From IMG/VR virus record IMGVR_UViG_641736147_000004, positions 1-64,000 of that record: DNA of 64,000 bases; one strand, 5' to 3'. This stretch comes from a virus (Duplodnaviria > Caudoviricetes). Below, in pieces: positions 28,397 through 49,511 of the stretch. The translations under genes and the position numbers were made by a program. Every line of letters begins with the position of its first letter. Within the stretch, counting starts at the first letter, position 1. Below the pieces are notes generated by a model. It saw only the letters and a program-made list of their open reading frames with translations, was not told the origin of the DNA and searched no databases.

Positions 28397-29095
28397 TTAA
28401 ATACTAGGAGTTCGTATCGCATCTTCTTCCTCTTTGTCTTGTATATAATTTTCATAATTATATATACACTCATTACATTTTTCTAATTTTTCGATATTCA
28501 ACATTTTACCGAGTCTAATACCTATTTCACTTATTTCATCTTCGCTTATTTCATTTTCTTTAACTTGTCCAAAAAGACTACTTATATGAACAAAACGAGC
28601 ATCCTTTAGCATTAAGATTCTATTCCATGGCTGACCGTTTGGTCTTACTACAGGGATATAATATAAATGATAAAACTCTTCACTTCGTTCTGTAATGGCT
28701 TTATATTCTCGTTCTCTTTGTTTATATTCATCTCTTGAAGTACATTGATTTAATATCGGTTCTTTTAAAGTCTGAATTGGTATAACAAATACATTATCAT
28801 GATATTGTTTTGAAAATTCTATATCTTGAAAAATTAACACTGGTCTAGATTTAGCTCTAGATACTACCAAAATATCCTCTTTCGCTTTAGTATGACCATT
28901 ATTATCTTTAACGGGTACAAATCCATCATTTTTAAATACCAATTTCCCAGAAGCTTCATTTCCTTCCTGTCTGTTATTAAATAATTGTCTTTGTTTTGAT
29001 GTATCATCAAATTCAAAGAAACCTAATGGATTATGTTCAATAAATTGAAAACCTGTTAAAACTATAGAATTGTTTTTTAATGAGTTAAAATCCAA
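28397..29095 (-). CDS. PemK/MazF-like toxin with insertion (cassette 1)
   Basis: RAKSRPVLIFQD..VFVIPIQT; downstream of a small acidic ORF. Confidence 0.6.
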   Translation of the reverse strand: MDFNSLKNNSIVLTGFQFIEHNPLGFFEFDDTSKQRQLFNNRQEGNEASGKLVFKNDGFVPVKDNNGHTKAKEDILVVSRAKSRPVLIFQDIEFSKQYHDNVFVIPIQTLKEPILNQCTSRDEYKQREREYKAITERSEEFYHLYYIPVVRPNGQPWNRILMLKDARFVHISSLFGQVKENEISEDEISEIGIRLGKMLNIEKLEKCNECIYNYENYIQDKEEEDAIRTPSI

Positions 29096-29116
29096 TATAG
29101 TATCCCCCTCTTGATC

Positions 29117-29383
29117 TTACATTTCTTTCAAATCATCTGTGTTGTCAATCATAAAATCTTCTAAATATGTATCATCATCATAAATTAAATGTTCAGTTGC
29201 ATCCATTCTTTCTTCTTTAGTAAAGTGATATGCCTGATTTTCTCGTACCTTCTTTTTGTAATCAAATAAATTAATTACCTTACTCATAATTATCACCCCA
29301 TTATTTGTGACTATTTTTTTCCATTTGTAACTACTAACAGATGCCTTTGTTTTATTGCAACTTGTCCAACGTTGTATTTTCAT
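29117..29383 (-). CDS. Putative antitoxin with MKIQRWTS extension (cassette 1; internal start 29287)
   Basis: Acidic C-terminus; two RBS/ATG pairs in frame. Confidence 0.65.
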   Translation of the reverse strand: MKIQRWTSCNKTKASVSSYKWKKIVTNNGVIIMSKVINLFDYKKKVRENQAYHFTKEERMDATEHLIYDDDTYLEDFMIDNTDDLKEM

Positions 29384-29586
29384 ATTACCACTCCTTATCC
29401 CCTATTTCAATTAAAATATGTTATATTAACCTACATTTTACATATAATTGTTTTAGTCAATATAGATACATTAACTAATTTAAGATAAACACACTTATAT
29501 TTTACCATATTTTGTAATTAAAGAATAAGAGCAATTTACACTTTTAACTAACAAAAATAACTACTTAATCAAAAGTAGTTATTTTT

Positions 29587-29778
29587 TTAAGCATGATTAA
29601 TATTATTGTTTTCCTTCTGATTATCATGAACACATTTATCTATAAATTCAAGATAAAGTTTTCGATCTTCTTTTGGAAATAGACTATTAACTATTATCCT
29701 TACAATACCTACTATCTCTGCAAATATACCTGTTATAAATAATCTTATTGTCCATTCATCATATTTGAATGTTCCTTT
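29587..29778 (-). CDS. 3' part (63 aa) of the membrane-protein gene interrupted by the IStron
   Basis: KGTFKYDEWTIRLFITGIFAEIVGIVRIIVNSLFP... continues ...WNIG (32336) in frame once the element is removed. Confidence 0.8.
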   Translation of the reverse strand, partial: KGTFKYDEWTIRLFITGIFAEIVGIVRIIVNSLFPKEDRKLYLEFIDKCVHDNQKENNNINHA

Positions 29779-29975
29779 CCGATACGAAAAATATATACAT
29801 TTCTATTTAAATGTAGACATTTATACTATGACACGACTTATGTCTTATGATTTTCGTCTTGTGTCTTCCTGCTTCAACGAATCTGGGTTTGCCGAAGCTA
29901 CTACCATTTGATATGACTCTTAACAGGCTTAAATTCCGTAGTATCGTTACGTACATATTCAAAGCTTAGTTTAGG
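29779..29975 (-). ncRNA. Probable TnpB omegaRNA scaffold / intron 3' end
   Basis: Structured noncoding segment between the tnpB stop and the right end (GTAGCTTCGGC, GACATAAGTC, TACATTT..AAATGTA). Confidence 0.65.
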
Positions 29976-31154
29976 TTAAGCACTTTGAATTTGGTAATTT
30001 GCTAAATTAATACTTGCGTTCAAATCTCTATCCATCTTTAAGCCACAATTACAGACATATAATCTGTCTTTAAGCTTTAAATCTGATTTAACTTGACCAC
30101 AACAACTACAAGTTTTTGATGATGGATACCATTTATCAGCTTCAACAAATTTAATTCCATACTTCTTACATTTGTATTGAATTTGTCTTTTAAATTCATA
30201 TAACTTTTGATTAGCTATAGCTTTAGATAAATGCTTATTCTTCATTATACCTTTTATATTCAATGTTTCCATCACAATTCGAGAAGGCTTGGTTTTCACT
30301 ATCTCATTGGAACATTGATGCAAATGATTTGTGCGAATATTTTCAAGTTTTTTATATAAATTACGAATTATTCTGTTTTGTTTTTGGATATTTTTCATAT
30401 CTCTTAAAGGTCTTTTATAAATCGGTTTTCTATTCTTATCATAACTTTTAATATTAGCTTCGAGTTTATGACTTATCTTTCGCTGTTCACGTTTCAATTT
30501 CTTTTCAAGGAATCTAACTCTTTTAGTTTTATTTATATTTTTCTTAAATTGACCGTCTGAACACACAGCTAATTCTTTTATACCAACGTCAATTCCTAAA
30601 CTAACATCAGTTAATTTGACAGCTTTAAATTCATTGTTATATCCTATAGATATAAACCAATTCATACCATCAAATGATATTCGTGGATTTGAATATTTTT
30701 CACCTTTCTTTAACTTTGGTAATGCTTGATATGTTTTTACTACACCGATTTTTTCACCTCTAAAGCCATTATTTGTTCGCTTTAGACTTTCATAATTCAC
30801 ATAAAAACTAACTTTACTTTTTCGCTTACTTTTGAATTTCGGCTTGTTTGCAACACCATCAAACCATCTTTTTCTAGCTATGTCAGCATCTTTTACTGCT
30901 TGTTTCATTACATTGCTTCCAACTTCTTCAAGCCATGTATGAGTAGTCTTTTTTAATACATTATTAATATATTTTCTGACTTCGCTTTCTTTTATGGTTT
31001 TCTTGTCTTGTTTACCTTCAAGATACTCTTGGTAGTGTCTTTCACTTTCTGATAAAAAATAGTTATAAGACCACCTTGCAACTCCTGCTGACTTCCAAAA
31101 TAAAACCTCTTGTTCTTTAGTTGGCTTTAATTTTATTTTAATTGCTACTATCAT
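29976..31154 (-). CDS. tnpB: TnpB RNA-guided nuclease
   Basis: N-terminal KIKLKPTKEQ; RuvC D-E-D (GIDVG, VMETL, DRDLNAS); CSCC..CNCG zinc finger. Confidence 0.93.
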   Translation of the reverse strand: MIVAIKIKLKPTKEQEVLFWKSAGVARWSYNYFLSESERHYQEYLEGKQDKKTIKESEVRKYINNVLKKTTHTWLEEVGSNVMKQAVKDADIARKRWFDGVANKPKFKSKRKSKVSFYVNYESLKRTNNGFRGEKIGVVKTYQALPKLKKGEKYSNPRISFDGMNWFISIGYNNEFKAVKLTDVSLGIDVGIKELAVCSDGQFKKNINKTKRVRFLEKKLKREQRKISHKLEANIKSYDKNRKPIYKRPLRDMKNIQKQNRIIRNLYKKLENIRTNHLHQCSNEIVKTKPSRIVMETLNIKGIMKNKHLSKAIANQKLYEFKRQIQYKCKKYGIKFVEADKWYPSSKTCSCCGQVKSDLKLKDRLYVCNCGLKMDRDLNASINLANYQIQSA

Positions 31155-48304: not shown

Positions 48305-48509
48305 ATATATCGTCCCATTCATCTTCATCATTCCATTCATCGTCTTGAGAAATAATAGGTCTTCCCTTTGCATCTATTTTTATATTTCGCATTAGCATTT
48401 CTTTCAATGCAAATTTATTAATTCTTAAGCAATTTTCCATTTTAGCCCCCCCATTTCTTATATAAAATGCCCTTTTAATCTGTGAACTTGTCCACTTCTT
48501 TAATTTCAT
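48282..48509 (-). CDS. Antitoxin with MKLKKWTS extension (cassette 5; internal start 48440)
   Basis: Acidic ISQDDEWNDEDEWD tail; overlaps the toxin start. Confidence 0.72.
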   Translation of the reverse strand: MKLKKWTSSQIKRAFYIRNGGAKMENCLRINKFALKEMLMRNIKIDAKGRPIISQDDEWNDEDEWDDIYDRSETK

Positions 48510-48712
48510 ATTACCACTCCTTATCCAACTTTTCAATGAAATTTTGGTAAAATATATGATATTATGTTATATTTTTGTATTTGTGCATCTAATAATTTTA
48601 TATTTTTTATGCAAATTATTTACATAATTATATTTTACCATATATTGGTTATAAGTAGTAATGATATTATTTCATATAACAAAAACCCCTAATATCGTTG
48701 AATACTAGGAGT

Positions 48713-49060
48713 TTAAAAATGTTGTTTGACAATTCTATTGATAACTTTATCAAAATCCTCATCTGTCATAACACCAATCTTTTTATACAATTTATTAGAT
48801 GGAATCTTGTACAATTTATTGACTTTTACAAATGACATTTTATCAAGCCCAGCTTCTTTCCACTTAACTATAGGTTTTTTGAACTTATCAAAGTGTCCTG
48901 GTGGGTCTTTAGGTTTTGCACTAGTTATTTCAGAAATAGTGTACGAAGTTTCTTTATCAGTTACATTTTTATTAATTATTATGATAGGTCTGTTTTTTGC
49001 TTTCTCAATTTTATCTTCATAATAAATACGAACTATATAAATATCTTTAATATCTGCCAT
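48713..49060 (-). CDS. PemK/MazF toxin (cassette 6)
   Basis: DIYIVRIYYED..KNRPIIII..EITS..WKEAGLDKMSFV. Confidence 0.88.
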   Translation of the reverse strand: MADIKDIYIVRIYYEDKIEKAKNRPIIIINKNVTDKETSYTISEITSAKPKDPPGHFDKFKKPIVKWKEAGLDKMSFVKVNKLYKIPSNKLYKKIGVMTDEDFDKVINRIVKQHF

Positions 49061-49070
49061 ATATTAATAC

Positions 49071-49295
49071 CTATTCTTCATCCTCATACCAATCTTTATG
49101 ATTAGGATTATTAGAATCTAATTCCACCATATTGTCCTTACCTGTTAACAAGGTAAGTTTAGCACTAATTTTATCTAGTGCTGATTGGATTTCTGGAGTT
49201 TTATGAAATACTACTTCCATATTATCTGCTCCTCTCTTATGTATCTTTAACTTGTACACCTTTTTATTAAAACTTGTCCAACGTTGTATTTTCAT
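49071..49295 (-). CDS. Antitoxin with MKIQRWTS extension (cassette 6; internal start 49220)
   Basis: ELDSNNPNHKDWYEDEE tail; two RBS/ATG pairs. Confidence 0.72.
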   Translation of the reverse strand: MKIQRWTSFNKKVYKLKIHKRGADNMEVVFHKTPEIQSALDKISAKLTLLTGKDNMVELDSNNPNHKDWYEDEE

Positions 49296-49511
49296 ATTAA
49301 CACCCCCTACCTTATTTTTCAATAAAAATTCTGGTAAAATATATGGTACTATGATATATTTTTCTACTTAAATATAATTCACCAATATTCTAGATTGTAA
49401 TTGTAAATTATTTACACAATTATATTTTACCATAAATTGGTTAGGGTTTGTAATAATATTACATACATAAAGGAGCGCGGATACTTAACATAAAATCACA
49501 GTTTTATTTAC

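Follow-up and report, generated by a model that had tools for sequence, protein, structure and literature searches.

Why should several small genes with dissimilar products, each lying directly upstream of a putative toxin gene, begin with the same short peptide? This question is raised by a stretch of phage DNA of 64,000 nucleotides (positions 1 to 64,000 of IMG/VR record IMGVR_UViG_641736147_000004; hereafter the window), in which six open reading frames (ORFs) start with MKIQRWTS (four ORFs), MKIQRWTG (one) or MKLKKWTS (one). An initial annotation of the window proposed that these ORFs encode unrelated antitoxins of toxin-antitoxin (TA) pairs, which share an added N-terminal tag and keep their own internal start. 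Both sets of starts were confirmed on the minus strand, with the tag ATGs at 29383, 36180, 38810, 47717, 48509 and 49295 and the internal ATGs at 29287, 36063, 38732, 47603, 48440 and 49220. The six leaders that connect them are open and in frame up to the internal Met, for 32, 39, 26, 38, 23 and 25 codons in cassettes 1 to 6, respectively, and the bodies beyond the internal Met are 41 to 62 residues long. Comparisons with related elements indicate that the tag is the 3' end of a shared promoter-leader module of approximately 200 nt, not a peptide alone, and that at least 11 unrelated antitoxin genes, placed under one common control, probably give rise to antitoxin both with and without the tag.

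The record from which the window is taken has 104 kb and belongs to a Clostridium botulinum group III neurotoxin phage-plasmid. A hidden Markov model of the module was searched with nhmmer against the whole record, four complete kin replicons (p1BKT015925, c-st, CP063966 and CP063823, the last being p1 of strain 1873) and IMG/VR fragments. The 43 matches obtained represent 27 unique sequences; eight copies are found in p1BKT015925 and two each in c-st, CP063966 and CP063823, and the window's own record has a seventh copy beyond the window, at 66943. When the sequences were searched loosely for the tag motif in six frames, 43 matches were again obtained, each one at a module copy. In total, the record and its kin contain leader DNAs of 17 distinct sequences, which encode 14 different peptides and precede 11 different antitoxin bodies.

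Evidence that the leader is coding sequence comes first from its reading frame. Among the 523 codons of the 17 distinct leader DNAs, no stop was found in frame 0, compared to 77 and 56 stops in the +1 and +2 frames, respectively. In each of the 42 module copies with a 3' part, the leader is in frame with the antitoxin, with no stop before it, an outcome that agrees with what the initial annotation had expected from a tabulation across related phages. Moreover, an indel between two related leaders is exactly one codon. If independent, the 11 junctions would all be in frame with a chance of about (1/3)^11; as they are not fully independent, this figure is a guide only. Within codons 2 to 9, the summed column entropies at codon positions 1, 2 and 3 are 4.27, 3.10 and 5.84, so that third positions are the most variable, and pairwise comparison gives a pN/pS of 0.45. 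Residues K2, Q4, S8 and S9 of the tag show synonymous variation; codons 4 and 5 read CAACGT, AAGAAG, AAGAGG or GAGAAA, with the encoded residues always being Q, K or E followed by R or K, and Trp6 is invariant in all 17 distinct leader DNAs. These observations support the prediction that the leader is a translated, selectively maintained N-terminal extension, and the claim that selection acts on the in-frame fusion is upheld by the stop counts and the one-codon indel. An attenuator of the leader-peptide or upstream-ORF type would have a stop before the regulated gene; no stop was found in these 523 codons, and all leaders are read into the antitoxin.

Conservation is not limited to the peptide. 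In an alignment of six and then 15 copies, DNA conservation was found to extend from approximately 140 nt upstream of the tag ATG through about codon 9. The conserved tag peptide described by the initial annotation therefore stands, but the shared element is not a peptide only, as the promoter-like DNA upstream is conserved too. The 5' part of the module carries an extended -10 box (P1), TGGTAAAAT, which is nearly invariant across the 15 aligned modules; the string ATTTTAC(C/T) is nearly invariant as well. Approximately 75 variable bases separate the P1 box from the box of a second element (P2), which is close to consensus and invariant or nearly so in the 15 modules, and consists of ATTG(A/T)AA, a fixed 17-nt spacer, TGn and TAA(T/A/C)AT. 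The 17-nt spacer contains a G-rich Shine-Dalgarno (SD) site, SD1, and the P2 -10 box ends in two bases that also serve as the A and T of the tag ATG. P1 and P2 fit the sequence of sigma-70-type promoters (an extended -10 box, or hexamers at the usual spacing) and are conserved, a fit to be read against the AT-richness of this DNA, in which a scan found 30 sites versus 23 expected in shuffles. Four RNA runs with the same species label gave 0 reads, which counts neither for nor against the two promoters. Because the tag ATG overlaps the P2 -10 box, the P2 transcript is predicted to start at about tag codon 3 and to lack the tag ATG; the P1 transcript, predicted to start about 7 nt past the P1 box and thus about 125 nt upstream of the tag ATG, would include it.

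In addition, the P1 box and the ATTTTACC string of the module make up an inverted repeat of 12 nt, with a distance of 77 nt between the two. Its arms, TGGTAAAATATA and TATATTTTACCA (e.g., at 47851-47840 and 47762-47751 in the window), are extended -10-like boxes that face each other on opposite strands, and could represent convergent promoters or paired protein-binding sites.

With a promoter-like element overlapping the tag, the tag could in principle be no more than the -10 box, start region and 5' untranslated region of P2, or part of a regulatory RNA, with an open frame that is accidental. Such a non-coding origin would fit the near-consensus TTGAAA-17-TGnTAATAT promoter, the -10 box of which includes the first two bases of the tag ATG, and the conservation of DNA for about 140 nt upstream of the ATG. 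It is nevertheless highly improbable, given that stops are absent from frame 0 whereas the other frames have 77 and 56, the codon-position periodicity, and the fact that SD1 stays G-rich in a spacer that a promoter alone would not constrain. As for RNA, an Rfam scan at gathering thresholds placed no family at the modules (the only matches, to RAGATH-18 and a group I intron, lie elsewhere), RNAalifold predicted 0 pairs on the 15 modules, and no compensatory change was seen in the 12-nt inverted repeat; a structured cis-regulatory RNA was rejected on these grounds.

If the leader is translated, the question becomes which of the two starts is used. Pairing of SD1 with the anti-SD sequence reaches -9.6 to -13.9 kcal/mol in 16 of 17 copies, and that of the site before the internal ATG (SD2) reaches -9.0 to -12.8 kcal/mol in 17 of 17. 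By comparison, only 2.4% of 420 internal ATGs of long ORFs in the record reach -8 kcal/mol, as opposed to 70% of 60 first ATGs. Since both starts have strong SD pairing, the two antitoxin isoforms suggested by the initial annotation are plausible, with the use of either start being read from the sequence.

Homologues of one body point to the internal ATG as the older of the two starts. When the 78-aa long form at 38810 was used as the query of an exhaustive HMMER search, 134 cluster representatives were obtained, 120 of which have the core motif. Among these 120, 49 begin 13 to 28 residues before the core, a range that includes the internal Met of the window copy (at 24), eight begin 29 to 33 residues before it and 63 begin at least 35 residues before it. 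Tag-like N-termini were found in six of these 63, one from a C. haemolyticum plasmid and five from other assemblies, the latter being a hint of diverged, older tagged relatives. The 36 viral loci of this body represent 22 distinct frames, including two that are tagged, both from c-st kin, and one that is unreadable; no tag was found in the other 19 readable frames. Many of these 19 have an in-frame stop 8 to 17 codons before the native Met, and several share with the window a ribosome-binding site that is translated as xGGxxM. As homologues mostly start at this position and lack the tag, the internal ATG is the start that is native to a free-standing antitoxin family, and the leader is an addition. 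For the 38810 body, the tag is thus largely absent from homologues elsewhere (tag-like in six of 120 representatives and two of 22 viral frames), as expected by the initial annotation, and the proposed capture of foreign TA pairs is supported for at least this one pair, the evidence being specific to this body family.

These data also bear on a simpler explanation, namely that the tagged protein is the only antitoxin, and that the G-rich, SD-like stretch and the Met within it are coding sequence like any other. Database annotation would agree with it, as RefSeq lists the long forms in p1BKT015925 (genes of 225, 228, 267 and 240 nt) and the c-st depositors list CST141 in its long form, in both cases as hypothetical proteins. 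An antitoxin with the long form only is judged improbable, however, as SD2 is at least as strong as SD1 in 17 of 17 copies and far above the background of internal ATGs, 49 of 120 homologues elsewhere start at the position of the internal Met, and viral relatives share the xGGxxM signature with in-frame stops shortly before it. Nor was a suspected likeness of the tag to the 'KRWGNS' of MazE/AbrB-type N-termini borne out. PF04014 had 0 matches at E<=10 in the record, a phmmer search of PDB sequences gave 0 matches, and residues 1-30 of an AlphaFold2 (AF2) model are without strands; a MazE/AbrB-type N-terminus and the corresponding swapped-hairpin fold were therefore rejected.

The explanation put forward here is a mobile expression module of about 200 nt, common to type II TA cassettes of group III (C. 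novyi sensu lato) neurotoxin phage-plasmids. In the 5' to 3' direction, it consists of P1, the approximately 75 variable bases, P2 with SD1 in its spacer, an ATG that overlaps the -10 box, and a strongly basic leader of 23 to 39 codons, fused in frame to the native SD2 and ATG of at least 11 different antitoxin genes. P1 transcripts would give rise to both the long tagged antitoxin and the short one, and P2 transcripts, which would start past the tag ATG, to the short native antitoxin only. Recombination between module copies would allow cassettes to be gained, lost and re-paired, and the tail would itself be functional, in that it would offer one shared handle by which all the antitoxins could be reached.

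Recombination is supported by two observations on the leaders, and by the different numbers of cassettes (3, 4 or 5) in the array described below. The 38810-type body is preceded by one leader type in the window and by another in c-st and strain 1873 p1, and the leader at 47717 retains a relic of a 38810-type junction, followed by 8 more codons ahead of its own ribosome-binding site.

With regard to the tail, all 14 leader peptides have a net charge of +4 to +9. In the AF2 model, built on a 30-row alignment, residues 1-30 have a predicted local distance difference test score of 50 to 62 and no secondary structure, whereas the body scores 82 to 94; for another long form, modelling from the single sequence gave a poor result (52.7). 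That the tail has a role of its own as a common handle is, on balance, considered probable. Among the candidate roles, a nucleic-acid or operator-binding arm that restores shared autoregulation and is co-inherited with the promoter is tentatively preferred, because the tail travels with the promoter, native operators have been replaced, both isoforms are kept, and the tail is basic with an aromatic residue. A common turnover tag is unlikely, and a peptide that docks onto some other single factor, of phage or host, would be less likely still. A broader possibility, also tentative, is that of one master handle, in which the basic peptide and the promoter are grafted onto every captured antitoxin, whether its toxin is of the MazF, Doc, GNAT, PIN or ParE-like family, so that a single factor could shift all of them at once. 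The tail might bind an operator or RNA that acts as this factor, or the factor might be a protease, an adaptor or a phage protein, and the ratio of tagged to untagged antitoxin, set by the choice of P1 or P2, would switch between stable carriage and toxin release. A single signal to which all toxins respond, as proposed by the initial annotation, is likewise hypothetical.

The main rival to a function of the tail is one of expression alone. The strong SD1 and the tag ATG could provide a second ribosome entry, and the in-frame fusion could ensure an excess of antitoxin for foreign TA pairs that have arrived in a new host, in which case the peptide would be a passenger. This would account for the frame, the avoidance of stops and the retention of both SD sites, for a linker of 23 to 39 codons that varies widely in sequence and is predicted to be disordered, and for a c-st copy without SD1 that retains intact genes; A- and purine-rich early codons would moreover give K, R and E automatically. 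A passenger peptide is nevertheless rather doubtful, since third codon positions vary most and the core has a pN/pS of 0.45, Trp6 is invariant in all 17 leader DNAs, and the charge is always between +4 and +9. Stops in the leader, resulting in a short upstream ORF, should also be tolerated under this arrangement, but none were seen even though Lys codons are one step from a stop.

Several observations count against the proposed module with a functional tail. The insertion sequence ISCbt4-a splits one c-st module and removes P1, the P2 -35 box and SD1 (-3.1 kcal/mol), yet the cassette keeps its toxin and antitoxin frames intact. The long form is therefore probably not needed for neutralization, and the split copy suggests that the short antitoxin suffices. 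Because the tag core overlaps P2 and the initial transcribed region, constraint at the DNA level contributes to its conservation, and a pN/pS of 0.45 represents moderate constraint only. The linker is highly variable in length and sequence, which with its predicted disorder would fit a passenger peptide too, and no operator-like repeat was shown to co-vary with the tag. In addition, the module copies share descent and come from one narrow clade, so that the counts given above are not independent events, and the use of start sites and of both promoters is deduced from sequence. An apparently tagless module in c-st (138308-138184) is not a further case, as it was identified as the 5' half of the module split by ISCbt4-a.

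The assignment of the cassettes to type II TA systems is based on toxins and gene order. Three window toxins match PemK_toxin, and Fic/Doc, GNAT and PIN_3 toxins were also found above the Pfam cut-offs; a small co-oriented gene lies directly upstream of the toxin gene and adjoins or overlaps it. The initial annotation had listed five PemK/MazF-like toxins and one Doc toxin in the window. Doc and three of the five PemK-like proteins are above the Pfam cut-off, but the 132-aa and 232-aa proteins fall below it. In kin, tagged antitoxins are followed by further toxins, namely a GNAT acetyltransferase (Acetyltransf_7, 31.4 bits), a 185-aa relative of it (BLASTP E 4e-11) and a PIN_3 protein (60.6 bits), as well as a weak ParE/RelE-like candidate (18.2 bits, below cut-off). 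In 16 of 18 distinct cassettes, the toxin starts between 59 nt before and 25 nt after the antitoxin stop. The exceptions are the two copies of the CST141 cassette (c-st and strain 1873), where a gap of 146 nt is followed by an unclassified ORF. The 11 antitoxin bodies include only one detectably related pair, those partnering the GNAT-type toxins in kin records, and apart from this pair the bodies are mutually unrelated, as had been claimed. None of 11 long antitoxins matched Pfam or NCBIfam at curated cut-offs, the best match being weakly RelB-like (E 0.0024). All four complete kin replicons also encode a protein of 220 to 230 aa (c-st 22935-23597) with a strong PemK domain (approximately 77 bits) and a long C-terminal extension, which has neither a module nor a tagged antitoxin upstream.

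Within the collections searched, from which records close to the window's own genome may be missing, the module is confined to C. novyi sensu lato phage-plasmids. The stretch of three cassettes has 92% identity with p1BKT015925, a plasmid of C. botulinum BKT015925, and conserved module stretches are about 74-76% identical to those of phages c-st and D-1873. Elements of the p1BKT015925, c-st and D-1873 type are plasmid-prophages that carry type C/D neurotoxin genes. Scans of viral contigs for the tag or for P2 plus tag found 9 and 11 loci, respectively, all in group III kin. The same patterns found 0 and then one chance match (a Campylobacterales lipoprotein) in genome contigs and only two chance matches in metagenome contigs. 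A word-index protein search with tag residues 1-40 returned the query itself only, and an ESM Atlas search gave no usable match. In the openly licensed PMC and bioRxiv literature, no paper was found on a shared N-terminal antitoxin leader or on the TA cassettes of these phage-plasmids.

The cassettes are embedded among tail genes, and three of them form a tandem array that is flanked by the genes for the tape-measure protein (49814-55162) and the distal-tail protein (46149-46943). This array comprises three cassettes in the window's record, four in p1BKT015925 and five in another IMG/VR record; the tandem cassettes are co-oriented with the tail operon, and c-st has none at that site. In c-st (AP008983 136178-138308) and strain 1873 p1, a tagged cassette lies directly downstream of the gene for the C3 mono-ADP-ribosyltransferase; the c-st copy of this cassette is the one with the module split by ISCbt4-a.

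A comparison with known systems shows partial likenesses. In published reports on toxin-antitoxin-chaperone (TAC) systems, a short extension of the antitoxin, the chaperone-addiction (ChAD) sequence, brings it under the control of one common factor (PMC5105189, PMC6377645, bioRxiv 10.1101/2024.02.24.581848). The present leader resembles ChAD in being a short extension added to antitoxins; however, ChAD is C-terminal and depends on a SecB-like chaperone gene, whereas the leader is N-terminal, has its own SD and ATG and is attached to a promoter. The analogy to TAC drawn by the initial annotation was consequently abandoned, as the extension is at the other end, the C-termini are unrelated and no SecB (PF02556, E<=0.1) was found in five records, with a control matched in six of 14 genomes. 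One antitoxin element paired with many toxin superfamilies is also seen in Panacea (DUF4065), a hyperpromiscuous antitoxin domain (PMC8832971). That element is a folded domain linked to neutralization, whereas in the present cassettes the neutralizing bodies differ and the shared part is the leader with its promoter.

Among phage proteins, the capsid targeting sequence of T4 directs packaging into the head and is removed by the prohead protease. It is likewise one conserved N-terminal leader on unrelated phage proteins from polymorphic cassettes, but the cargo here consists of antitoxins, there is no sign that they are packaged, and the genes retain another start further inside. Type II antitoxins themselves are modular, with an N-terminal DNA-binding and a C-terminal neutralizing part; CcdA of the F plasmid, for instance, exists in a long form and a 41-residue C-terminal form. 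In both cases the N-terminal part would be dispensable for neutralization and may carry regulation, and long and short forms would coexist. The N-terminal parts of modular antitoxins are, however, folded domains (ribbon-helix-helix, helix-turn-helix, AbrB or Phd) that are specific to their operon, whereas here one unfolded tail of 23 to 39 residues is found on 11 bodies and no DNA-binding family was detected. Integron- and moron-type cassette arrays are bounded by repeats and commonly carry TA pairs. The tandem, co-oriented cassettes (3, 4 or 5) resemble such arrays in being bounded by repeats and each ended by a terminator, but in their case the repeat is a promoter-leader and contributes to the encoded protein, and exchange is presumed to be homologous, no search for an integrase or attC having been made.

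The regulation of type II antitoxins is generally viewed as a matter of single operons, in which each antitoxin acts through its own DNA-binding domain and its own lability. One promoter and N-terminal tail on a dozen unrelated antitoxins would imply joint control of many toxins, and the module would represent a ready-made adapter with which a mobile element could domesticate foreign TA pairs. The plasmid-prophages that carry the type C/D neurotoxins are unstable, and their retention or loss decides whether a strain is toxigenic; control of addiction or defence cassettes may for this reason bear on plasmid-prophage stability. The module could also be a clear natural case of a bacterial protein made with alternative N-termini, with the choice of promoter possibly deciding between them.

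The six cassettes of the window are all on the minus strand. The 5' module of cassette 1 (29354..29518; nhmmer match 29509-29355), with P1, P2 (-35 box at 29410-29405 by analogy), SD1 and the tag ATG placed from the alignments, leads into long antitoxin ORF 1 (29117..29383, 88 aa), for which, as for ORFs 2, 4, 5 and 6, the internal start was assigned from ORF and SD analysis. It is followed by putative toxin 1 (28397..29095, 232 aa), which is weakly PemK-like (PemK_toxin 15.1 bits, E 0.027, below cut-off). The modules of cassettes 2, 3, 5 and 6 were located with nhmmer, and that of cassette 4 with nhmmer and the alignment. Cassette 2 comprises a module at 36153..36319, long antitoxin ORF 2 (35875..36180, 101 aa) and a PemK/MazF-like toxin (35244..35849, 201 aa; 27.3 bits, cut-off 23.1). 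Cassette 3 has its module at 38783..38949 and long antitoxin ORF 3 (38574..38810, 78 aa), the internal start of which corresponds, according to homologue starts, to the native start of a widespread family of 50 aa. Its PemK-like toxin (38157..38555, 132 aa) scored 18.5 bits, below cut-off, and has a homologue in c-st kin that is listed as PemK/MazF in RefSeq.

In the tandem array, the module of cassette 4 (47690..47853) has the P1 extended -10 box at approximately 47850-47842 and the P2 -35 and -10 boxes at 47744-47739 and 47721-47716; it precedes long antitoxin ORF 4 (47478..47717, 79 aa) and the Doc (Fic) toxin (47049..47468; Fic/Doc 59.2 bits). Cassette 5 consists of a module at 48482..48642 with P2 at 48536-48508, long antitoxin ORF 5 (48282..48509, 75 aa) and a PemK/MazF toxin (47915..48373; longest ORF 152 aa, 24.9 bits) that overlaps the end of the antitoxin gene. 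Cassette 6 consists of a module at 49268..49435 with P2 at 49322-49294, long antitoxin ORF 6 (49071..49295, 74 aa) and a PemK/MazF toxin (48713..49060, 115 aa; 38.2 bits). One shared type of terminator-like hairpin, identified by pattern match on the same strand, closes cassettes 1 (28383..28412, with 3 mismatches), 4 (47017-47046), 5 (47894-47923) and 6 (48684-48713). A second family of terminator-like hairpins (AAAATAACTACTT...AAGTAGTTATTT) was found at 29532-29585, 36336-36389, 37542-37595 and 38966-39019, and precedes three modules.

Other elements lie near cassette 1. Directly upstream of it is an IS607-type element (29560-32060), which encodes a serine-recombinase TnpA (31138-31767) and a TnpB (29976-31154), both on the minus strand, together with a RAGATH-18 RNA (29866-29927, minus strand, 61 bits) and a match to a group I intron (31754-31989, 57 bits) that is, oddly, on the plus strand. 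The element resembles the CboIStron described on the BKT015925 plasmid (PMC10690162). According to one paper, no sequencing data had been published for the C. botulinum strains that carry the IS607 IStron. The gene for the nearby ImmA/IrrE peptidase, which the initial annotation had named as a candidate effector, is present at 32623-33144 (Peptidase_M78, 58.8 bits), but the proposed link between it and the tag found no support. Just after cassette 1, near the tail-spike genes, a gene for a PAAR-domain protein was found at 27976-28338 (50.1 bits). Moreover, a direct repeat of 300 nt with 93% identity occurs at 34195-34494 and 60763-61062 and spans an ORF of 100 aa (34200-34502) that belongs to no known family, and further repeats are located at 34931-34999, 61486-61554 and 63291-63359.

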